64,000 bases of DNA from NCBI GenBank assembly GCA_035250485.1, contig DATFFB010000214.1, positions 8,197 to 72,196 of the forward strand, given 5' to 3'. This document shows positions 10,692 through 57,868 of this stretch, one piece after another. The translations under genes and the position numbers were made by a program. The stretch comes from Acidimicrobiia bacterium (GTDB taxonomy: Bacteria; Actinomycetota; Acidimicrobiia; Spongiisociales; ZC4RG35). Each line of letters starts with the position of its first letter. Position 1 is the first letter of the stretch. Under the pieces are notes generated by a model. It was not told the origin of the DNA and did no database searches. It saw nothing but the letters and a program-made list of their open reading frames with translations.

Positions 10692-11282
10692 GTGAATCCT
10701 CGCCTGGAGGCTGCCGCCAGGGCCGTCGGGGTCACCCTTGATGACGGCATGAGGCAGCGCCTGGCGACCTTGGGAGGGTGGTTGACGACCGAGGCTCTGG
10801 CGGGCGGTGGGGTCGGCCCCAATGAGGCCGCCAAGATCGAGGAGAGGCACCTGGTGGATTCGATCCTCTTCGCGGCCGGGTGGGCGAGTGCCCCTCCGGT
10901 ATGCTGGGATCTGGGTTCGGGCGCCGGGCTCCCGGGGTTGGTGCTGGCTTGCATCTGGCCCGGCACCAGGCTGGTGCTGGTCGACTCTTCTGCCAAGCGC
11001 TGCGAGCTCGCCCGACGTGGAGGCCGTGTGGTGGGCGTCGATGTTGAAGTGCAGCAGTCCCGGATCGAGGATTTGACCGGGCCTTATTCCGCCATTGTCA
11101 GTCGGGCGACGATCCCCGCGGCGCGATTTGGTGGGATACTGAAACGGTTGCTGGCTCCCGGCGGGGTGGCTGTCATCTCGGGAAGTAGCCACGGCCATCC
11201 TCCGGGTTTTGAGCGCCTGCAGTTCCCGGGCGAGGAATTCTTTGATCGAACCTCCCGGCTTCTTATCATGCGCTCACCTTGA
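10692..11282 (+). CDS. rsmG: 16S rRNA (guanine527-N7)-methyltransferase RsmG (GidB)
   Basis: GTG start; SAM-binding motif DLGSGAGLPGLVLA and conserved synteny jag-rsmG-parA. Confidence 0.9.
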   Translation: MNPRLEAAARAVGVTLDDGMRQRLATLGGWLTTEALAGGGVGPNEAAKIEERHLVDSILFAAGWASAPPVCWDLGSGAGLPGLVLACIWPGTRLVLVDSSAKRCELARRGGRVVGVDVEVQQSRIEDLTGPYSAIVSRATIPAARFGGILKRLLAPGGVAVISGSSHGHPPGFERLQFPGEEFFDRTSRLLIMRSP

Positions 11283-12109
11283 ACGGCTCCTCCGCCATTA
11301 GCCCGGTCGAAGTCGGCTCCGAAACCCCGACGTCCGGCGTCGCCACCGTAGTTGCGCTGGCGAATCAAAAGGGTGGGGTGGGGAAGTCGACCACCGCCAT
11401 CAACCTGGCCGCGGCCCTGGCGATGCAGGGTCAGCGCTCGTTGATCGTCGACCTGGATCCGCAGGGCAATGCCACCTCAGGCCTCGGCATTGATCGGAGC
11501 GGGATCGCCGCTTCGATATATGACGTTCTTTTAAAGGACGTAGCAGTCGAGGACGCTATTGAACCGACCTCGGTCAAGAGCCTCTTTGTCCTCCCCGCCA
11601 CGATCGATCTGGCCGGGGCGGAAATCGAGTTGGTCCCGCTTCTGTCCCGAGAACAGCGGCTCCGTCAAGCCTTCGCTCCGATTCTCGAGGACTATCAGGT
11701 CATCTTTATCGACTGCCCTCCCTCACTTGGACTCCTGACGGTGAACGCCCTCACCGCTGCCCACGAGGTCCTTATCCCGATTCAGTGCGAGTACTACGCC
11801 CTCGAGGGCTTGAGCCAGTTGCTCAACAATGTGGACCTGGTCCGGCGGCAGCTGAATCCTCAACTGGTGATCGAAGGTGTGGTACTGACCATGTACGACT
11901 CCCGGACCAACCTTTCTCGCGACGTCGCCACCCAAGTGCGAAGTCACTTCGGGGATAAGACGTACCGGACCGTGATCCCGCGCTCGGTGCGGATTTCGGA
12001 GGCTCCCTCATATGGGGAGCCGATCGAGGCGCTCGACCCCATGGCTCGGGGGGCGATTGCCTATCGCGAGCTAGGTCGAGAGTTTCGGAGGCGTCATGGT
12101 CTCGACTAG
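11279..12109 (+). CDS. parA: Chromosome partitioning ATPase ParA (Soj)
   Basis: TTG start overlaps the rsmG stop by 4 nt. Deviant Walker A KGGVGKSTTAINLAAAL. Confidence 0.93.
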   Translation: MNGSSAISPVEVGSETPTSGVATVVALANQKGGVGKSTTAINLAAALAMQGQRSLIVDLDPQGNATSGLGIDRSGIAASIYDVLLKDVAVEDAIEPTSVKSLFVLPATIDLAGAEIELVPLLSREQRLRQAFAPILEDYQVIFIDCPPSLGLLTVNALTAAHEVLIPIQCEYYALEGLSQLLNNVDLVRRQLNPQLVIEGVVLTMYDSRTNLSRDVATQVRSHFGDKTYRTVIPRSVRISEAPSYGEPIEALDPMARGAIAYRELGREFRRRHGLD

Positions 12110-12118
12110 GAGGTTCCG

Positions 12119-12964
12119 ATGAGTCAGAAGCGCGGCCTGGGCAGAGGACTGGAAGCGCTGATCCCTTCGACCCCCGATCCCGAGCAAGGTTTCGCCGAGA
12201 TCGAGATCGACGAGATCCGGCCTAACCCGCAACAACCCCGGGGAGATTTCGACGACGAAGCGCTCTCCGGTCTGGCGGAGTCGATCAGGAGCCTCGGCCT
12301 TCTCCAGCCGGTGGTGGTCCGCCCCGATCCCGAGGGGGGCTATTTCCTGGTCGCCGGGGAACGCAGATGGCGGGCGGCTCGCAAGGCAGGGCTCAGTCGG
12401 ATTCCGGCCGTGATCCGGACGAGCGATGATCGGGAATGGCTTACCGCTGCCCTGGTCGAGAACCTGCAGCGGGCCGATCTCAATCCGTTGGAAGAGGCGG
12501 CCGCCTTTCAACAACTTCTGGAAGATTTTGGCTTAACGCACGAGGAGGTGGGTCGGAGAGTTGGGCGAAGCCGGGCGGCGATCACCAATTCGATTCGTCT
12601 ACTCGGGCTCCCTGCCTCGATCCAATCCCGGTTGGCGAGCGGAGAGCTCAGTGCCGGCCACGCCCGGGCTTTGGCGGCGATCGACGACCGGGCCTTCGCC
12701 GAGCACGTCGCCAAGCGGGCGGTGGCAGAAGGTTGGAGCGTTCGTCAGGTCGAGGAGGCGGTGCGTCTGCGGCGAGGTGAAGCCACGTCAGCGCCCCGTC
12801 TGCGCGAGGTTCGCCCCGCCGAGATCATCGAACTCGAGATGCGGCTTGCCGAGCGCTTGGGAAGCAAGGTCCGAGTCGACTTCCGCCAGGGCAAGGGGGC
12901 CCTACGAATCGACTATCGATCCCTCGAAGAGCTGGAGAAGATCTACCGAAGACTAATGAGCTGA
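12119..12964 (+). CDS. parB: Chromosome partitioning protein ParB (Spo0J)
   Basis: ParB box GERRWRAA and HTH region, 281 aa. Confidence 0.93.
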   Translation: MSQKRGLGRGLEALIPSTPDPEQGFAEIEIDEIRPNPQQPRGDFDDEALSGLAESIRSLGLLQPVVVRPDPEGGYFLVAGERRWRAARKAGLSRIPAVIRTSDDREWLTAALVENLQRADLNPLEEAAAFQQLLEDFGLTHEEVGRRVGRSRAAITNSIRLLGLPASIQSRLASGELSAGHARALAAIDDRAFAEHVAKRAVAEGWSVRQVEEAVRLRRGEATSAPRLREVRPAEIIELEMRLAERLGSKVRVDFRQGKGALRIDYRSLEELEKIYRRLMS

Positions 12965-12986: not shown

Positions 12987-13985
12987 TTGAGGTCACACAT
13001 GAGGCTTTATCGCCGGAGCGACACCGGAGACGCCGTGCGCGACATCCAGGGCCGCCTGCTCGCGCTTGGCTACCACCCCCAGAGCGATCCGGGGGGAGAG
13101 TTCGGGGCCGCCACCGAAGCGGCCGTGCGGGAATTTCAAAGCGATCGCGGCCTCACCGCCGACGGCGAGGTTGGACCCGAGACCTGGCGAGTGCTTTACG
13201 AAGCCGGTTACCGGTTGGGGGATCGGCTGCTTTTTCTGCGGCGCCCAATGTTGCGGGGAGAGGATGTGGCTGAGCTGCAGGGACGCCTCAGCCAACTCGG
13301 ATTCGATCCCGGCAAGGTGGATGGAATCTTTGGCCTCGAGACCGAGCAAGCGGTCCTCGAGTTTCAGCGCAATCGAGTCCTAACCGAGGATGGGATCGCC
13401 GGCCCCGAGGTTCTCACCGAGCTCCGACTGTTGGTCCGCGGAAAGATGCGAGCCGGACGAGAAACGGTGAGGGAGCGGGAATGGCTGCGGAGCTTGCCCG
13501 ACAGTGTCGTCGGGTCCCGGGTGTTCTTTGATGCAGCCTGTCGCACCCCGGAAGAAGCCCGGGCGACGTGGGTGGCGGCGAGCTCGGCGGCGATGGAGCT
13601 GCAGGCGCGAGGTGGCCAGCCGATTCTGGGTCGTGCCGCCGACACGCGGCTCCCGGAACGAGTACGGGCCGGGCGGGCCAATCGCCTGGGGGCGGAACTG
13701 GTGGTGTCATTTCAGGTTCGGGCGGATGGGGGCCCGGCGGCGGTCTTTTACTTCGCCAGCGATCGGGGAGTCTCACGGGCAGGGGAGATGCTCGCCAACC
13801 GAATCGCCGAGACCGCCGGGGGGCTTGTGGAGGGGCGCGCTACCGCCATCCTGCGCGATACCAGGGCGCCGTCGGTGATCGTTTCACATCCCGAGCTCGG
13901 AACCGAAATCGGACGCCTGGTGGTTGACGGCCTGGCGCAGTTCTTCGCTACGGCAGCCTTGGAAACCTCAGATTCGAAGACTTAA
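12987..13985 (+). CDS. cwlM: N-acetylmuramoyl-L-alanine amidase with two peptidoglycan-binding domains (CwlM-like)
   Basis: Two PG_binding_1 repeats (…GDAVRDIQGRLLALGY…, …GEDVAELQGRLSQLGF…) followed by an amidase_3-like C-terminus. Same neighbourhood (parB / trx / sigM) as mycobacterial cwlM. Confidence 0.8.
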   Translation: MRSHMRLYRRSDTGDAVRDIQGRLLALGYHPQSDPGGEFGAATEAAVREFQSDRGLTADGEVGPETWRVLYEAGYRLGDRLLFLRRPMLRGEDVAELQGRLSQLGFDPGKVDGIFGLETEQAVLEFQRNRVLTEDGIAGPEVLTELRLLVRGKMRAGRETVREREWLRSLPDSVVGSRVFFDAACRTPEEARATWVAASSAAMELQARGGQPILGRAADTRLPERVRAGRANRLGAELVVSFQVRADGGPAAVFYFASDRGVSRAGEMLANRIAETAGGLVEGRATAILRDTRAPSVIVSHPELGTEIGRLVVDGLAQFFATAALETSDSKT

Positions 13986-14058
13986 GACAAGAGACAAAAG
14001 ACGAAAGACAAAAGAAAAAAGAGTCTCTGGTCTTTCAGCCCGCCGAAGGCGGGCGATC
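13986..14058. repeat. Dispersed AT-rich heptamer-repeat element, copy A: (RAAAGAC)n tract plus GC hairpin
   Basis: gacaagagacaaaagacgaaagacaaaagaaaaaagag followed by gtctctggtctttcagcccgccgaaggcgggcgatctt. Sits between convergent cwlM and trxA stops; the hairpin GCCCGCC-gaag-GCGGGC could act as a bidirectional terminator. Confidence 0.6.
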
Positions 14059-14385
14059 TTAAGCCAGAAATTCCGACAGTTCGGAGACGAGGTTGTGCTT
14101 AGGGCGGGCGCCGATGATTCGCTTCTTCTCGACTCCATCCTGAAAGAGGATCAGGGTCGGGATGCTCATCACGTCATACTCGCCGGAAATCTGCGGATTC
14201 TCGTCGACATTGAGCTTGCCGATTCGAAGCTTGCCGTCGTACTCGGTGGCCATCTCGTCGAGGATGGGGGCAATCAACCGACAGGGTCCGCACCACTCGG
14301 CCCAAAAATCGACCAGGATGGGAGTTCCTCCCGCAATGGTCTGATCGAAGCTCGACTTGTCGAGGATGACGGTGTTTTCAGTCAT
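14059..14385 (-). CDS. trxA: Thioredoxin
   Basis: WCGPC active site, 108 aa. Confidence 0.93.
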   Translation of the reverse strand: MTENTVILDKSSFDQTIAGGTPILVDFWAEWCGPCRLIAPILDEMATEYDGKLRIGKLNVDENPQISGEYDVMSIPTLILFQDGVEKKRIIGARPKHNLVSELSEFLA

Positions 14386-14444
14386 GTGTTTCCTTTCCTA
14401 CCAAAGGCCAACCCATACCCGGTCGGCCTCATTCCAACACTGGT

Positions 14445-15374
14445 CTATTCCGCCAGCGATTCGAGGTAATGCTGAGCATCCAGGGCCGCCATACAGCCGG
14501 TGCCGGCGGCGCTGACTGCCTGGCGATACCGGGAATCGGCCACGTCACCGGCCGCGAATACACCCGGGACATCGGTAGCCGTGGTTCCGTCCCCTTTCAG
14601 GATCAGGTAGCCGCGCTCGTCGAGGCGGAGGCTGTCGGCGAAGATGGCGGTGTTGGGGATGTGACCGATAGCTACGAACACCCCATCGGCGGCCAGGCGC
14701 TCCTTCTCACCGGTCTCGGTGTTGACCAGCGTGACCGCCTGAACGCCCTTGTCTCCCAGGATCTCTTCGACCAGTGAGTTCCATCGGACTTTGATCTTGG
14801 GGTGGTCGAGCACCCGTTGAGCCATGATCGCCGAGGCCCGGAACTCATCCCGCCGATGGACGACTGTCACTTGAGAGGCGAAGCGGGTGAGGAACAGCGC
14901 CTCCTCCATGGCCGAGTCACCCCCGCCGACCACGACCAGTTCCTTGTCCCGGAAGAAGAATCCATCGCAGGTGGCGCACGAGGAAACCCCGCGGCCGGTG
15001 AGGCGCTCTTCACCGGGAATGCCTAGCCATTTCGCCGCCGCCCCGGTGGCGATGACGACGGATCGAGCTTTATGACCGTTGTCGCCGGTGAAGACCTCGA
15101 AGGGATCGGAGGAAAGGTCCACCGCGGTGACGTCGGTGGCAACGAGGCGCGCCCCAAATCTCTCGGCCTGCTTGCGAAACTGGTCCATGAGCTCAGGCCC
15201 AAGAATGCCGCCCGGGAAACCTGGATAGTTCTCAACGTCGGTGGTGATCATGAGCTGGCCGCCGGGTTGAGTGCCTTCGAAAACGAGCGGCTTCAAGTCG
15301 GCTCGGGCCGCGTAGAGGGCGGCAGTGAGGCCGGCGGGCCCGCTGCCGATGATGATGACGTTTTCGGTTGTCAC
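14445..15374 (-). CDS. trxB: Thioredoxin-disulfide reductase
   Basis: FAD/NADPH motifs (GSGPAG…) and the CATC redox-active site, 309 aa. Confidence 0.95.
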
Positions 15375-15646
15375 GAAGCCTTTTTCCTATTGCCCCACAA
15401 GATGAACCCGAAGATGAGCACGACGAGGCCGAGGACACCGAAGGCCCCATCGGAACCGAGCGGAATGGCCAGGGCGCCGTAAATGGAAAGCACAAGAAAC
15501 ACCAGCGCCAGCAACCCCAGAGTGAGAGCTGCCATTCCCAACGAAGAGAGGCGGATCCAGCGGCTGATTCGATCGACGGTGAGCGACCGAATCCGGGTAG
15601 CGACCATCTCCAGAAAATCGGCAAACCGGGCTGGAAAGTCGTCCAC
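15371..15646 (-). CDS. Small hypothetical membrane protein (2 predicted TM helices)
   Basis: GTG start; 91 aa with two hydrophobic helices. Overlaps the trxB start by 4 nt, suggesting translational coupling. Confidence 0.5.
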
Positions 15647-15654
15647 CTGTTCAG

Positions 15655-15745
15655 ATTAGATCTGAGACAAAAGACGAAAGACAAAAGACGAAAGATCGGA
15701 GATGTCTTGGGGTCCTTCAGCCGCCGGAGGCGGGCGATCTTCTGT
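15655..15745. repeat. Dispersed AT-rich heptamer-repeat element, copy B
   Basis: gagacaaaagacgaaagacaaaagacgaaagat followed by gtcttggggtccttcagccgccggaggcgggcgatctt. The tail is about 85% identical to the tail of copy A. Lies between the anti-sigma stop and the small membrane protein start. Confidence 0.6.
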
Positions 15746-15753
15746 CGGTCGCC

Positions 15754-16473
15754 CTATGGCAACACGATTTCGGAGCAGTCGTCGAGGAAGAACGCGCGCG
15801 GGGAGAGTTCGCCGTCGTCTTCCACCAGGAGCAACAACACCTGCCGGCCCTGATAGGTGCTTTCCCCTCGTTCCTCGATGGCGAGGTCCTCGGTCTCCTC
15901 GACGCAGGAGACCGACGCGTCTCCTGCGGGCGTACCTTCGTCAGCCAGCGCCTCGGCCTCGGCTTTGAGCTCGTCGAGGTCCCCTCCAGCTTCAAGTTGC
16001 GCGAGTGTGGCCGAGGCGGCGGTGGTGGCGGTCGCTCGTTCCGTATTGGTGGCGCCGCCAGCGGCGAACTCGGGAGCGGCCGCGTCGGCGGCCATGGACG
16101 TGGTGGCGGCATTGCCCGATCCCTGCTGGCTAGCGATGGTCGCGCCCACCCCAACCACAACCGCCAGTGCAGCGGCGGCGGCCATCATCCGGCCCCAGAT
16201 CGGGCTCATGGGTTTGGTCTCGGTCTTGCGCCGCATCGGAACCGGCAGGGCGGCGGTGATCGCTGTCGCCATTTGTGACTGCTCGCGCTCGGTCAATTGG
16301 GCGGAGCCGACCCCCGCCAGAAGCGAGCGCAGCTGCAATTGCTCTTCGAACAACACCCGGCACTCCGCGCACCCCGAGATCAGGGCTTCGGCCGCGACTC
16401 GATCGGGTTCATAGCCTGAGGCATGAGCCGCCAAAAGCTCGAGATCGTGCGCGTCGTGATTCATCCTGCTCAT
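15754..16473 (-). CDS. Anti-sigma factor (membrane-spanning, RsmA-like)
   Basis: Immediately downstream of the ECF sigma with a 4-nt overlap. N-terminal cytoplasmic domain with a C-x2-C motif (GCAECRV), a central TM segment (…AAAAALAVVVGVGATIA…) and an Ala/Thr-rich extracytoplasmic tail. Confidence 0.6.
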   Translation of the reverse strand: MSRMNHDAHDLELLAAHASGYEPDRVAAEALISGCAECRVLFEEQLQLRSLLAGVGSAQLTEREQSQMATAITAALPVPMRRKTETKPMSPIWGRMMAAAAALAVVVGVGATIASQQGSGNAATTSMAADAAAPEFAAGGATNTERATATTAASATLAQLEAGGDLDELKAEAEALADEGTPAGDASVSCVEETEDLAIEERGESTYQGRQVLLLLVEDDGELSPRAFFLDDCSEIVLP

Positions 16474-17048
16474 AGTTCGTCGGTAAGACTTTGATGCCCC
16501 GACCCCCCCGAAAGGTTCCCTAACTCGGCCGCCAGTTGGCGCCGGGCCCGAAAAAGGCGCGACTTGACGGTCCCGATCGGCAAGTCGAGACGCTCGGCCA
16601 CCTCCGGAAGGCTGAAGCCCTCGATGTCGGAGAGCACGACGACCGAGCGAAAGTCGACGCTGAGGTTGGCCAGGGCAGCAGCGATCGGGGCGGCCAGCTC
16701 AACGGAAGTGAAGGGATCGGTCGCGGTGGGATCGACGGGGTCGAGGTAGTCGGGCATCGGCTCTGAGGGCCGGCGGCGCTCGCGACGCAGGTGGTCATAG
16801 CAAGTGTTGATGGCGATGCGATAGAGCCACGTTCCGACGGCCGCCCCCGCCCGGTATTGGCCGGCCTTGCGATAAAGAGTGAGAAACGTCTCCTGAGTGG
16901 CGTCAAGGGCGGCAGCTCGGTTCCCCATCATTCGTAGGCAAACCGAGAAGATCCGGTCCTGATGCCGCCGCATGAGGGCGGTGAAGGCATCGTGATCTCC
17001 CCCGACCACTCGCTCGATCAAAACCGCATCGTCGAGTGAAGCGGTCAT
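16470..17048 (-). CDS. ECF RNA polymerase sigma factor (SigM-like)
   Basis: Sigma-70 region 2 and 4 motifs (…FTALMRRHQDRIFSVCLRM…, …TVKSRLFRARRQL…). ATG at 17048 overlaps the stop of the upstream pseudokinase gene (ATGA). Gene order with trxB/trxA matches mycobacterial sigM. Confidence 0.85.
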   Translation of the reverse strand: MTASLDDAVLIERVVGGDHDAFTALMRRHQDRIFSVCLRMMGNRAAALDATQETFLTLYRKAGQYRAGAAVGTWLYRIAINTCYDHLRRERRRPSEPMPDYLDPVDPTATDPFTSVELAAPIAAALANLSVDFRSVVVLSDIEGFSLPEVAERLDLPIGTVKSRLFRARRQLAAELGNLSGGSGHQSLTDEL

Positions 17049-18349
17049 GCGTGAAAGCGTATCTCCCCAATGGTGATCCAATAATCACCGTCTCCGTGGC
17101 GTGGCAGCGACGTGAACCACATGAGCCAGTTGCCGTCGCTGCGCTCGGGCAGCTGAAAGGTCAGGGGCCCTCCCTCCGTTCTGCCGGTGGCGATGACCTC
17201 CCATCCGCTGGGGTCATCGGGTCGTTCCGTCGACCAGCGCACGCTGATGTCTGCTCCGCCGGGGATTCCCACGATCTCGAGCACGTTCGGGGTGCCGGTG
17301 ACGGCGATGGTTAGGCCGACGCCGGGTTTGAGCAGCTCCATGGGATCGCGGTACCGCTCGGTTCGCCACGACGTGTCGATATCCCCATCGATGGTGGCGC
17401 CGACGTTCTGATCGTTCTCGCCTCCCTCTCCGAATGGGTCGAAGGTGGCGACGCCCGTGATCTCCGGCGGCGGGCGATCGGCCGCCGCGCTAACACTGGG
17501 AGCAAGTGTGGTGACGACCACGGTCGGGGTCAGAATGGTGGCGGCCGACCCCGGCACCACCGGAACCCCGGTGTCGCCCGCCAGGACTCGGCCGATGGCG
17601 ATCAGACCGGCCGCGAGCACTGTGAGGACTCCCGCGAGAACCAGGGTTCGCCAGCTGCGGGCAGGTATCTCTGTGGGCGGCCGGGGACGGGGAATGGCCT
17701 CCAACGCATGCGAGAAGGCGTCCGCGTTGAGTTCGCCCTGCTGGGCGGCCTGGAGAGCCCGATCCACCTCGATCGGGACTCCATCGACAACTTCGGAGGG
17801 CGGCGGTCCACCGGGCGCAAAACCGGTCAGGGCCTGTTCCAAAACTCCGGCGAGGTCGGAGACATCGCCCGCGGTTGAAGCCAGATAACGGCGGGCCCGT
17901 CCGAAACCGCCCAGACGGGCGGGGCGAGAAACGGTGTAAAGAATGGCTCCCGGGTCGATGGCGGCGTGAAACACGCCAGCCTCATGCAACGCCGCCAGTG
18001 CTCCTGCCAGACCGGCGGCGTTGGCGCAGAACTCGGGGTAGTCCATGGTCTCGCCGGACTCGAGACGGCTCTGCAGCGTCATTCCGCCGTTCCATTCCGA
18101 GACGAAGTAGGCGCCATCGGTGACCTCCTCGGCCTCAAAGATCGGCTCCAGATGCGGGTGGCGAACCGCGGCCGCCCCCCGCACCGCCTTGAGGAAGTCC
18201 GAGCGCCGCTTCTCACTGGCATCCGGGCCAAGCAGCCGGATCAGGACCGGGCGATCGAGGTGTTCGTCGGTCGCCAGCCACTCTTCGATGTCCTGATCGC
18301 GACCGAGGCGAACCTCGAGGCGATAGCGAGTTGGAAGGGGCGGGGGCAT
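17045..18349 (-). CDS. Membrane-anchored pseudokinase-domain protein (resembles the C-terminal module of mycobacterial MviN/MurJ; no flippase domain)
   Basis: N-terminal protein-kinase-like fold lacking the catalytic HRD / Lys motifs (…AGLAGALAALHEAGVFHAAIDPGAI…), one TM helix (…TLVLAGVLTVLAAGLIAIG…) and a ~150-aa extracytoplasmic C-terminal domain. Confidence 0.7.
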   Translation of the reverse strand: MPPPLPTRYRLEVRLGRDQDIEEWLATDEHLDRPVLIRLLGPDASEKRRSDFLKAVRGAAAVRHPHLEPIFEAEEVTDGAYFVSEWNGGMTLQSRLESGETMDYPEFCANAAGLAGALAALHEAGVFHAAIDPGAILYTVSRPARLGGFGRARRYLASTAGDVSDLAGVLEQALTGFAPGGPPPSEVVDGVPIEVDRALQAAQQGELNADAFSHALEAIPRPRPPTEIPARSWRTLVLAGVLTVLAAGLIAIGRVLAGDTGVPVVPGSAATILTPTVVVTTLAPSVSAAADRPPPEITGVATFDPFGEGGENDQNVGATIDGDIDTSWRTERYRDPMELLKPGVGLTIAVTGTPNVLEIVGIPGGADISVRWSTERPDDPSGWEVIATGRTEGGPLTFQLPERSDGNWLMWFTSLPRHGDGDYWITIGEIRFHA

Positions 18350-29290: not shown

Positions 29291-30600
29291 CCCTTTGGGG
29301 CGGCCGCTTCTCTTCGACGCCCAATCAGGAAATGTGGGATTTCACCGTCGATCATGCCGATCGACGGTTGCTCTCCTTTGACATCGAGGGTTCGGCTGCC
29401 CATGTCGAGATGCTGACCAAGGTCGGGCTGCTCGACGCTGACGAAGGAGCGGAGCTGGGGAAAGGGCTGCAGGCAATCGCCGAAGAGGCCACCGCCGGTT
29501 CCTTCCAGTTCTTCGACACCGATGAGGATGTCCACACCGCGGTCGAGCGCCGACTCATTGAGCTGGTGGGCGAGGTCGGTGGCAAGTTGCACACTGGACG
29601 CTCCCGCAACGACCAGATCGCCCTCGACCTCCGCCTTTATCTACGGTCCGCGGTTGGTGCTCGCCGCCACGATCTTGCCGCCGTTATCTCCGTGCTGGCA
29701 GACCAGGCTGCACGACACCGCGAGACAGCCGTAGCCACCTATACCCACCTCCAGCAGGCCCAGCGCTCGACTCTGGGGCATCAGTTGCTGGCTCACGCCT
29801 GGGCAATACGTCGCGACCACGAGCGCCTGGCTGATCTCGAGAAGAGGCTTTTGGTATCACCGCTCGGCGCCGGCGCCTCGGCAGGGTCATCCCTTCCGCT
29901 CGATCCCGCCCAGACAGCCGCCCGGCTCGGGTTTGCCACCGTCTTTGAGAACTCGCTCGACGCGGTTTCGAGCCGTGACCTCGTATCCGAGTTTGGCTTT
30001 GTCGCCACTCAGGCGATGGTCCACTTTTCCCGTCTGGCCGAAGAGCTCGTGCTCTGGTCCTCGCTCGAGTTCGGCTGGGTGCAGCTCGCCGACGAGTTCA
30101 CGACCGGCTCGTCGGCTTTGCCGCAGAAGAAGAATCCGGATGTGGCCGAGCTGGTGCGGGGGCGCGCCGCGGGTGCGATTGGCCAGCTGACCGGATTGCT
30201 TGCATTGCAGAAGGGCCTTCCGCTCTCCTACAACCGAGATCTCCAAGAGGACAAGCCGGCGCTCTTCTGGCTCGACGATACGTTGGGGGCAAGCAGCCGA
30301 GCTCTTGCCCGGCTAATCGCTACCGCTACTTTCGACCCGCCCCCACCCTCGGTTTGGACCGACGCCCTCGGCATCGCCGAGAATCTCGTCCGCCGAGGGA
30401 TTGCCTTCCGCGCTGCTCACGAGATGGTGGGAAAACTCGTCGCTCGTCTGCTGGCGGACGGACACAATCTCGCCGATGTCGATCCCGGCGACCTCGCTGC
30501 CACCGGCTTGCAGCCCTCCGATCTCGAGGTGGTCCGCTCTCACGCAGGACTCTCCATCGACGAGCAGATCGCCCGCCTCCGCCAATCCGTTCTTGCGTAG
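29287..30600 (+). CDS. argH: Argininosuccinate lyase
   Basis: Fumarate-lyase signature (…[12 protein letters not shown]…), 437 aa. Confidence 0.96.
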
Positions 30601-37954: not shown

Positions 37955-38045
37955 CAAGAAAGACAAAAGACAAAAGACGAAAGACTTCAGATATCAGACA
38001 TCAGAGTGGGAGAAAGGAGTGGCCGCCCGGTAGGGGGCGGCCACT
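37955..38045. repeat. Dispersed AT-rich heptamer-repeat element, copy C (most complete: both heptamer types plus hairpin)
   Basis: aagaaagacaaaagacaaaagacgaaagac + ttcagatatcagacatcagag + hairpin gtggccgcccggtagggggcggccac. Lies in the divergent region between the histidine phosphatase gene and pyrE. Confidence 0.6.
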
Positions 38046-38130
38046 ACTGTCAGCGTCGACCACAGCGGGAGGAGAAACCGACTGTGCGTCGACCTATTAC
38101 ATCGACCGGCGACGCCGAAAAGTTGAGCGC

Positions 38131-53869: not shown

Positions 53870-53900
53870 GAGGCCCCGGCGGAGGGGACGCCGGGGCCTC
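53870..53900 (-). terminator. Strong hairpin terminator between the small zinc-ribbon gene and the csoR operon
   Basis: GAGGCCCCGGCG-gagggga-CGCCGGGGCCTC: perfect 12-bp stem followed by tctctttct on the plus strand. Confidence 0.55.
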
Positions 53901-56346: not shown

Positions 56347-56420
56347 TGCCCGAAGATATCAGACGCCGGATTTCAGAAGACAAAAGCAAAAGACATCAGA
56401 TATCAGATGTCAGACTTCAG
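56347..56420. repeat. Dispersed AT-rich heptamer-repeat element, copy D ((TCAGAY)n-rich, no hairpin)
   Basis: gatatcagacgccggatttcagaagacaaaagcaaaagacatcagatatcagatgtcagacttcagatga. Fills the 70-bp gap between the amidohydrolase stop (which it overlaps) and the M3 peptidase start inside a minus-strand operon. Confidence 0.6.
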
Positions 56421-57868
56421 ATGAAGGTGGGTGGGGTGGTGAGTTCCAGCCGCTGGCCGCGGCGGTACGAGGCGAGGACCCTCGTGCCGGCGACGTCAGC
56501 GGTCCGCAAAGGGTCGCGATCGATGACGATCACGTTGGAAGGTCCGCCCACCTTGAGAGACGGCCCGTAGAGCTCGTAGGCGGATCCGGCGCTGAGGCCA
56601 CCGATTCGCGCCGCCGCCATTCCTTCCCAGGGATTTGGGGTTTCTACCGGGCAGTCCGAGCCTCCCCGCAGCGGTATGCCTTCTTCTTCCATCCGACCCA
56701 GCGCATAGGTGTGTCCGACCCGGCGTCCGAGCCTCTTCTTGAGCCAGGTCACCTCCGATGTGATGAAGCTCGGCTGCACTGAGGCGGTGATGCCGAGGTG
56801 GGCCATGCGCCGGCGGGCGGTGGGGGTGAGCACGGACGCATGCTCGATGCGAAGAGCAGCTTCGTTTGCGCCTGCGACCATCAGGTCACGAAGGAGGTCG
56901 AGAACTGCGTCGTTGGCTCGATCACCAATGGCGTGGATGGCCACCGCCCCGCCGAGGTCGAGAGCCGCTCGTGCCATCTCGTCGGCGTGGGGGCGACGCA
57001 GGCGCATGATGCCCACATTGTCGGGGTCATCGCTGAAGCCTTCATGGAGAGCTGCGGTACGACCACCGAGGGCTCCGTCGGCAAACTCCTTCCACCCGTC
57101 GAACCTCAGGTTGCTGCCTGCACCCTGCAGCGCTGCGGCAGCAGAGCCCAGACTCGGAGGATCGGGTGCCGTCACTAGTACCTCGAAATCAAGAGGCACC
57201 CTGGGGGCCAGGGAGATCAGGGTGGTCAATTCCTCCGGCACCTCGCAAAAGAGCGGGTCGCCCGCCGAAACGATGGCAGTGATCGTCCCCAGCCCCAGGC
57301 TGGCCAGGCCCACGAGCGACTGTTCGACGATTTCAGGGGCCAAGGGGGACTGCCTTGAGCCGACCTCACGCAGAACGGGCGCGATCTCTTCTTCGCGCAG
57401 GATGCCGTCAGGGTGATCGCTGAGGCCGGCCAATGCCAGAGCCGCACTGTTGGCGACGGCGACGTGGACGCAGTAGCGATGGAGCAAGAGCGGCGTCGTC
57501 CCCACCATCTCGTCTAGCTCCCAGCGGTTGGGGAGACGTAGTTCGGAAAGGGCCTCGTCGTCGAGGCGGGTGGCCGTCAATGATTCGCCCGGTTGCAAAC
57601 GCGCTGCCGCCGCCTGCAGCCGCTTTCGGAGGCCATCGAAATCGGGCACATCTTTGAGGGTGAGCCGGGAGACGGCAGCGGCGTAGCCCAGGGGATGGAA
57701 GTGGTGATCGTGACGAGGTGCGCTGAGGAAGCCTTCGTGTTGGCTCACCTCGTAGGTGCCGTCGAACTCGGCGCGACGACCGATGGCCACAATCCGATCA
57801 GCGTCGATCAGGACCGAGTCGGCGTCGGGGATGCCGACGATGCCCGAGGAGGTGAGAAGACGTCTCAT
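56417..57868 (-). CDS. Amidohydrolase-family protein (amidohydrolase_3)
   Basis: Metal-dependent hydrolase motifs (…DHHFHPLG…, …AIHAIGD…, …GSDCP…). Start MRRLLTSSG at 57868 overlaps the upstream stop (ATGA). Confidence 0.85.
   Translation of the reverse strand: MRRLLTSSGIVGIPDADSVLIDADRIVAIGRRAEFDGTYEVSQHEGFLSAPRHDHHFHPLGYAAAVSRLTLKDVPDFDGLRKRLQAAAARLQPGESLTATRLDDEALSELRLPNRWELDEMVGTTPLLLHRYCVHVAVANSAALALAGLSDHPDGILREEEIAPVLREVGSRQSPLAPEIVEQSLVGLASLGLGTITAIVSAGDPLFCEVPEELTTLISLAPRVPLDFEVLVTAPDPPSLGSAAAALQGAGSNLRFDGWKEFADGALGGRTAALHEGFSDDPDNVGIMRLRRPHADEMARAALDLGGAVAIHAIGDRANDAVLDLLRDLMVAGANEAALRIEHASVLTPTARRRMAHLGITASVQPSFITSEVTWLKKRLGRRVGHTYALGRMEEEGIPLRGGSDCPVETPNPWEGMAAARIGGLSAGSAYELYGPSLKVGGPSNVIVIDRDPLRTADVAGTRVLASYRRGQRLELTTPPTFI

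Follow-up and report, generated by a model that had tools for sequence, protein, structure and literature searches.

Tandem repeats of seven nucleotides are a known and poorly understood class of bacterial DNA. According to PMC4692102, an excess of heptameric repeats in the intergenic DNA of bacteria has been on record since 2007, and their role in bacteria is unexplained (PMC4692102; PMC4679880). Known members are the cyanobacterial STRR, GGGAATC of Xanthomonas and GGGGAYT of Nostoc (PMC4692102), and the TAACTGA heptamer of Beggiatoaceae, cyanobacteria and Bacteroidetes (PMC4679880). TAACTGA repeats lie immediately upstream of gene starts, and binding by S1, Csp or CsrA has been proposed for them (MacGregor 2015, PMC4679880). 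The four arrays (A to D) in the stretch of 64 kb analyzed here, hereafter the window, consist of at least three head-to-tail units, are non-coding and change quickly, and so fit the heptanucleotide SSR or STRR-like class. What is new is this variant and its occurrence in this lineage, the Acidimicrobiia. Like the known heptanucleotide SSRs, the arrays repeat a 7-nt unit in tandem, with 2 to about 10 copies, are intergenic and often only a few nt from starts or stops, sometimes form inverted pairs between convergent genes, and vary in length and sequence between close relatives. Unlike them, they are found in Acidimicrobiia, use the units AAAGACR and TCAGAYN, form palindromic arrays with a conserved GC stem-loop in one arm, have one U-rich strand, which would let the array serve as the U-tract of a terminator as well, and have no G-quadruplex potential. 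The TCAGAYN heptads of the window (56361-56425) and of one relative (site B of locus L215) read NNTCTGA in the sense of the genes, one base from TAACTGA (PMC4679880).

A scan of a genome collection with AGACRAAAGACRAAAGACRAA returned more than 120 loci in many phyla, mostly Bacteroidota, Fibrobacter and Chloroflexota; relatives of the window were not among the matches listed. Arrays of AAAGACR heptads (L006-L125) are present in more than 120 genomes, including cyanobacteria, Myxococcota and Acidobacteriota, often mixed with other heptads, in inverted pairs and near GGGGGA-N4-TCCCCC hairpins; in Bacteroidota the A-rich array strand frequently reaches up to an ATG. Across 618 kb of Acidimicrobiia loci, non-triplet tandem repeats had a period of 7 in 20 arrays, 14 in nine and 21 in five, with 2-4 arrays for each of the periods 10, 11, 13 and 16. 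Palindromic heptamer arrays are common in these bacteria, with species-specific units such as TAGGTGG/CCTATAA, CGTTCTA/AACGTAA and TCCGTTG/ACGGAAG, usually as inverted pairs at gene boundaries.

The window covers the origin-proximal region of the genome, at 63% G+C. dnaN and dnaA are on the minus strand at about 5-8 kb, followed by rpmH, yidC, jag and gidB and then, on the plus strand, by parA (11279-12109), parB (12119-12964) and a CwlM-like gene with two PG_binding_1 domains (12987-13985). The minus strand then carries trxA (14059-14385), trxB (14445-15374), an ORF of 91 aa with two hydrophobic segments and a GTG start at 15646 (15371-15646), a putative anti-sigma gene of 239 aa (15754-16473) and an ECF sigma gene (16470-17081), beyond which there is a pseudokinase gene. 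Named homologues of the CwlM-like and anti-sigma proteins come only from Acidimicrobiia MAGs, an NCBI MAG contig among them encoding an anti-sigma protein 100% identical to this one, and the relatives compared below are Acidimicrobiia metagenome contigs. trxA and the cwlM-like gene follow one another in the same direction in most Acidimicrobiia sampled (loci L135-L210), and the cwlM-like gene is inverted, converging on trxA, in the clade of the window (the window, L126-L133 and L211-L227). In L135-L210 palindromic arrays fill the spacer between the trxA stop and the cwlM ATG right up to the ATG, and the units next to the start often hold TAA, TAG or TGA (AACGTAA, CCTATAA, AACGTGA); given the 7-nt period, these stop-bearing units close all three reading frames. 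In some relatives both ends of the cwlM-like gene carry heptamer arrays (L128, 6283-6317).

Two of the arrays of the window, A and B, had been singled out in an earlier note on this DNA as copies of one element, and their places are as it gave them. Copy A (13968-14060, 93 nt) is found between the stop codons of the CwlM-like gene (13983-13985, plus strand) and trxA (14059-14061, minus strand), while copy B (15651-15741, 91 nt) is between the stop of the 239-aa protein (15754-15756) and the GTG of the 91-aa ORF (15646), its tail 12 nt from the former. On the plus strand copy A begins with the array TCAGATT CGAAGAC TTAAGAC AAGAGAC AAAAGAC GAAAGAC AAAAGAA AAAAGAG (13968-14022), which takes in the last six codons and the TAA stop of the CwlM-like gene. 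Its tail (gtctctggtctttcaGCCCGCCgaaGGCGGGCgatctt, 14023-14060) opens with the inverted heptads GTCTCTG GTCTTTC A (14023-14037), complementary to the AGAC-type units, followed by the GC stem-loop GCCCGCC-gaa-GGCGGGC (14038-14054; 7 bp, -15.1 kcal/mol on either strand) and, overlapping the trxA stop, the heptad GATCTTA (14055-14061). Copy B likewise has a plus-strand array, TCAGATT AGATCTG AGACAAA AGACGAA AGACAAA AGACGAA AGATCGG AGATGTC (15651-15706), and a tail (gtcttggggtccttcaGCC-GCCggaGGCGGGCgatctt, 15704-15741) of degenerate inverted heptads, stem-loop and GATCTT. Its stem-loop, GCC-GCC-gga-GGCGGGC (15720-15735), has one C deleted in the 5' arm, and the stability of the hairpin falls from -15.1 to about -8 kcal/mol. 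Both copies are identical in five metagenome contigs of the same species.

The likeness of A and B extends over their full length: 75 of the 96 aligned columns of the entire modules are identical, and the array portions include an identical run of 25 nt. In the best local alignment of the tails 29 of 32 positions agree with one 1-nt gap, a score of 47 against a maximum of 27 among 11,586 control windows drawn from both strands of the window. The earlier estimate of about 85% identity between the tails is thus a fair one, the figure being roughly 80% by eye over the 38 nt quoted and 91% in the 32-nt core, and the whole-module match together with the tail score bears out the view that A and B are homologous composite modules and not chance low-complexity tracts. 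They are two copies of one intergenic heptanucleotide-repeat module of about 92 nt. The tail had also been described as a conserved stretch reaching beyond the array, but its anatomy is not that of a separate appendix. In the aligned hairpin instances from the window and its relatives, RTCTNNN heptads flank the stem on both sides, with GTCTCTG GTCTTTC before it and GATCTTN after it, then AGTCTCT in relatives, and when reverse-complemented these flanking heptads give the AGAY-type array units. Judged from these sequences, the tail is the right, short arm of a palindromic heptamer array with an embedded GC stem-loop, and the whole module is a long imperfect heptad palindrome with a GC clamp. Pattern and BLAST searches found no third copy of the tail in the 64-kb window, and in about 760 kb of related loci every occurrence of the tail was at an orthologous site A or B; a regular expression for the 3' arm plus GATC with one mismatch returned mostly chance matches in coding DNA. 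A perfect match of 16 nt to the B tail (GGAGGCGGGCGATCTG, 30566-30581, minus strand) has neither a hairpin partner nor an array and was judged to be due to chance.

All four arrays of the window are in spacers, A overlapping the last codons of its neighbor, and all four read on the plus strand, which is the leading strand (4/4, p = 0.125; the relatives L128 and L130 carry arrays on the opposite strand). The period-7 copy numbers from TRF are 5.6 for A, 4.4 for B, 3.9 and 3.4 for C and 4.6 for D, with the AGA register maintained over 5-7 units. Array C (37959-38009), of AAAGACR and then TCAGAYA units, is located where a His_Phos_1 gene (start 37940, minus strand) and a PRTase-like ORF without a Pfam match (ATG 38131, plus strand) diverge. 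Its layout is like that of A and B, and its tail differs: an 11-bp GC hairpin unrelated to theirs lies beside it (38018-38046, -26 kcal/mol). That hairpin reads GTGGCCGCCC ggta GGGGGCGGCCAC, and a second inverted repeat, GTCGACCACAG...CTGTGCGTCGAC, follows (38018-38095 in all). Array D (56391-56425; element 56355-56425), of TCAGAYN and AAAGAC units, is between two minus-strand genes, Amidohydro_3 (stop 56417) and Peptidase_M3 (ATG 56346). On the minus strand it reads GACATCtgatatctGATGTC and UUUUGCUUUU, a terminator-like arrangement 5 nt past the Amidohydro_3 stop, in which GACATC pairs with GATGTC ahead of UUUUGCUUUU. The best canonical terminator-like site in the scanned region is elsewhere, at 53870-53900 on the plus strand, with a 12-bp stem of which 11 pairs are G-C, followed by TCTTTCT.

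Conservation of the module at site A, the trxA/cwlM-like junction, which the earlier note had implied, is not what the relatives display. Among eight lineages whose PG-binding protein is 77-95% identical to that of the window, site A has eight different states. In L127 and L128 (82-83% identical) there is no spacer at all, the two stops overlapping at GCTTAAGCC or CCTAGG; L131 has a spacer of 3 nt and L130 one of 22 nt; L126 (92%) has 39 nt with neither array nor stable hairpin; and L214 (95%) has a 16-bp heptad palindrome without a GC stem. Long arrays followed by inverted arrays are found in L223 and L225, and AAAGAC units followed by inverted units in L132/L133. L211, L215 and L227 combine TCAGA-type heptads with a GC stem of the same outer pairs and GATCT flank and of differing inner pairs. 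At site B, which comes after the anti-sigma gene, the module is present as in the window in L224/L225 and L223 (anti-sigma 81-82% identical), with an AAGAYNN array followed by GTCTTTGGTCTTTaA, GCCCGCCggaGGCGGGC and GATCTTCaGTCTCTAG; GCCCGCCggaGGCGGGC is followed by GATCTTC, and in L223 the hairpin part is tandemly duplicated. Site B is remodelled in L215-L222 (91%) and L227 (80%), with TCAGA-type heptads and an oppositely oriented GC stem, and is a spacer of only 44 nt in L127. Unit type and number at orthologous sites vary in every lineage examined. In L130 a 2.7-kb NB-ARC/TPR gene is found at site B between inverted heptamer arrays (12642-12679 and 15453-15487) that share CAGATCCGAGTC, as if the gene had been inserted into or between arrays.

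The likeness of A and B was likely acquired by copying within the 1.7-kb locus and not through independent conservation of the two. The array and tail of copy A (13993-14058) reach 72-78 when compared with the site-B modules of the window, L224 and L223, but site A of the relatives gives them no more than 17-26. The left end of copy A (13955-13992), which encodes the C-terminal ...SDSKT*, behaves in the opposite manner, with scores of 26-34 against site A of L225, L223, L126 and L214, 18-25 against four other site-A sequences and 14-20 against any site B. Judged from these scores, copy A is a chimera whose left end is of site-A type and whose array and tail are of site-B type. Because the array and tail match site B, and a B-type module is present at site B also in lineages without one at site A, the simplest reading is that B was copied onto A. 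The module would thus be old at site B, and in the lineage of the window its array and tail would have been copied onto site A by ectopic recombination or gene conversion primed on arrays already at both sites.

A different origin for copy A, insertion of a MITE at TTAA, might be read from the CTTAAG that brackets it on each side (13981-13986 and 14058-14063) and from the apparently empty site in L127 and L128, L127 having a single GCTTAAGCC at its overlapping stops. Copy B and the relatives explain this apparent target-site duplication and largely refute the idea, which we regard as very improbable. The sequence to the left of the left CTTAAG is not the flank of the empty site, and the right CTTAAG is the end of the module overlapping the conserved trxA ...CTGGCTTAA. 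In copy B GATCTT is part of the module, and TTCTG and not TTAAG comes next. Furthermore, apart from the palindromic CTTAAG/AGATCT sites the module has no terminal inverted repeats, and the 64 kb hold only two copies, both in one locus.

The earlier note had proposed compensatory change in the stem as a check on structure, and here the outcome is moderately positive. Stem pairs were counted by script from arms defined by hand, as MAFFT misplaced gaps with loops of 3 and 4 nt. Neither the GATCT flank nor the four outer pairs (GCCC/GGGC) vary over 11 hairpin instances, while the inner three pairs are GCC/GGC in window A and B, L224, L223, the second L215 hairpin and L227 B, GGC/GCC in L211 A and the first L215 hairpin, and CGG/CCG in L227 A. 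Changes on both sides thus affect three of the seven pairs, and there are two T.G wobbles in addition. In the first ten instances 92.9% of cells are paired, against 17.6-54% with slid partner columns, and the covariation score was reached by 31 of 500 shuffles. Counter-examples are window B, which lacks one C, the irregular 3' arm of L215 A and one of the tandem L223 hairpins, which lacks the outer pair; the two wobbles, both in L223, are compatible with pairing only on the antisense strand of the genes. Taken together, these comparisons point moderately to structural maintenance of the GC stem. Compensatory changes in quasi-palindromes can, however, arise by template switching without selection, and covariation is accordingly not proof of function.

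This possibility is central to the main rival of any reading in which the module marks transcript ends, namely that it is neutral or selfish repeat DNA. Slippage would expand the heptads, template switching would perfect the quasi-palindromes, and proximity to stop codons would reflect the intergenic DNA available, so that hairpin and "covariation" alike would be mutational by-products. The very fast turnover at site A, the dominance of period 7 and its multiples among non-triplet tandem repeats and the differences in unit between species all favor such a view, as does the hairpin itself, tandem in L223, inverted in L215 and L227 and decayed in window B and L215 A; the bacterial over-representation of heptamers has likewise been put down, tentatively, to polymerase slippage (PMC4692102). 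What it accounts for less well is that lineages with an anti-sigma protein just 80% identical still have, at A or B, a GC stem of unchanged outer pairs and flanks, that three different inner stems occur among them, and that in copy A the inverted heptads pair with the 3' coding end of trxA in a stem that stops exactly at a U-tract. Neutral turnover seems to us possible, if on the whole unlikely.

We hold with medium confidence, as the best explanation when combined with copying from B to A, that the module would serve as a transcript-end hairpin. The minus strand is the sense strand of both the sigma/anti-sigma and the smallORF-trxB-trxA units, and the modules begin 0-17 nt from a stop codon on that strand. 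Minus-strand copy A is predicted to fold into an extended hairpin of 22 bp (14074-14020; -27.2 kcal/mol, 51% of the ensemble, z -3.1), a composite stem with an internal loop and bulges, in which the GC stem is enclosed by pairing between the final codons of trxA (AAUUUCUGGCU) and the inverted heptads (AGACCAGAGAC). Directly after it comes UUUUUCUUUU (14019-14010; U5CU4, nine U in 10 nt). By sequence criteria hairpin and UUUUUCUUUU (14010-14074) make copy A a predicted canonical intrinsic terminator of the smallORF-trxB-trxA operon, on the minus strand only. The earlier note had suggested a bidirectional terminator; the minus strand is indeed terminator-like, but in the plus-strand direction GACAGUUCGG, which has no U-tract, comes after the hairpin, and a bidirectional role in the canonical sense is not supported. 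Since mycobacterial RNA polymerase, according to PMC3993855, needs a U-tract, the minus-strand reading fits actinobacterial enzymology. Intrinsic terminators of the canonical kind have a U-tract of 7-9 nt immediately 3' of the stem. Like them, copy A has a GC-rich stem running from the stop of the last gene directly into a 10-nt tract; unlike them, its stem is part coding sequence and part repeat units, its U-tract is the opening unit of a repeat that runs on much further, and its sister copy B is degenerate.

As a transcript-end hairpin, the nascent RNA would form the GC stem first, the inverted heptads would then extend it, and the long (YGUCUUU)n array would supply a U-rich 3' tail. Transcription would probably stop at the module, copy A acting as a factor-independent terminator for the trx operon, and copy B and its intact relatives ending or insulating the sigma/anti-sigma transcript upstream of the start region of the trx operon. 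In copy B a U-tract would directly follow the stem only if an 8-bp outer stem (AGAAGAUC/GAUCUUUC) closed just before GUCUUUUGUC, and such folds are no better than those of shuffles (z -0.7 to -1.9). The intact module at site B of L224 is predicted to fold on its sense strand as a single long hairpin with U-rich tails (-38 to -53 kcal/mol). At the trxA end a different hairpin with a U-rich tail was found in L214, L132 and L223, and none in L126, L211, L127, L128 or L130, in a progressive-fold scan of the relatives that is crude and gives a qualitative indication only. A terminator scan of the window called neither A nor B, because it allowed only uninterrupted stems and their GC stem is not beside the T-run; a promoter scan gave nothing at either, and terminator-like sites in this genome are not enriched over shuffles. 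Against termination, close relatives do without the module at site A (overlapping stops in L127 and L128, no hairpin in L126), the hairpin is flipped relative to the genes at site B in L215 and L227, and array C with its hairpin occupies a divergent spacer where no gene end requires one.

The same features could in principle serve RNA processing or stability. An endonuclease would cut in the single-stranded (GUCUUUY)n, the GC stem would shield the resulting 3' end, and the sigma/anti-sigma and trx messages would gain different stabilities. The order on the sense strand, stop codon, hairpin and long unstructured pyrimidine-rich tract, would suit such an element, and so would the position of the GC stem at site B, which is not beside the U-run (24 nt away in the window), and the C/G ratios of 1.1-1.8 in the minus-strand arrays. 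A preference for RN|CNU has been reported for mycobacterial RNase E, and GU|CUU conforms to it. A reading as a rut site for Rho was likewise considered. We nevertheless consider this improbable, as copy A has no downstream gene on the minus strand whose message would need separating.

A role at the other end of the transcription unit is suggested by the arrays B, C and D, which end 9-19 nt upstream of minus-strand starts that have no Shine-Dalgarno sequence. The arrays could then be promoter-proximal or translation-start elements for the downstream minus-strand gene, acting as an AT-rich upstream element or as a platform for protein or ribosome binding, with the tail no more than a neighboring insulator. 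The TAACTGA repeats upstream of start codons (PMC4679880) have a comparable placement. Before the 91-aa ORF, CTAATCTG N5-6 GTG is kept in the window, L215, L223 and L224. In minus-strand reading the left end of copy B, AGATTA (15653-15658), gives TAATCT, with the GTG (15646) 6 nt further on, and since the actinobacterial -10 element is TANNNT, TAATCT fits at leaderless spacing; CTAATCTG (15647-15659, minus strand) therefore looks like a -10 box for a leaderless transcript. Similar candidate -10 boxes are TATCTTcgggcaATG (56346) and TACCGTcgcccctcGTG (37940). Copy A, however, has no downstream gene on the minus strand, the shared tail is left unexplained, and L127, where the CTAATCTG motif is 9 nt before an ATG, retains motif and gene without any array, so that a start element has little likelihood as an account of the module.

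Repeated terminator hairpins have been reported in mycobacteria, and the module also invites comparison with REP/BIME elements. Like these it is an imperfect palindrome, short and rich in GC, whose flanks are conserved and which occurs after stops in either orientation and sometimes in tandem; its stem is maintained while the sequence drifts. Unlike these it has two copies in 64 kb, at one locus, and is always embedded in heptamer arrays. The many dispersed copies of a REP/BIME family were absent from the 64-kb window and about 760 kb of related loci, with no evidence for a genome-wide family or a RAYT-type transposase. Rfam returned only a tRNA for the window at the gathering score, and for 13800-15900 at E<=10 the best hit had an E-value of 0.73 (21 bits against a gathering score of 57).

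A broader proposal, which we put forward as speculative and rather doubtful, is that palindromic heptamer arrays are self-renewing, register-tolerant makers of gene-boundary hairpins that exchange by conversion and mediate rearrangements, with the 7-nt period as a common molecular ruler. If they are register-tolerant, any number of units in the long arm would still give a stem and a single-stranded pyrimidine tail; if they exchange by conversion, the proposed copying of B onto A would be a case in point; if they mediate rearrangements, examples may be the gene between inverted arrays in L130 and the inversion of the cwlM-like gene in this clade. The strict 7-nt period is common to Beggiatoaceae, cyanobacteria, Bacteroidota and Chloroflexota, and if it is a ruler it would reflect a polymerase footprint or a nucleic-acid-binding protein that reads heptads, rather than chance.

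Most likely, the module of this locus does an ordinary job, that of a transcript-end hairpin, by means of an unusual and fast-evolving repeat. The locus suggests a testable role for heptamers, in which the repeat supplies both terminator arms and the U-tract, and its series of close relatives displays the birth, copying, inversion and decay of such a structure at two fixed sites. Two intergenic elements of one locus may look alike through local conversion and not shared constraint, which matters wherever covariation serves as evidence of function. For the annotation of GC-rich uncultured Actinomycetota, scans for a stem plus T-run would miss composite terminators of this kind.
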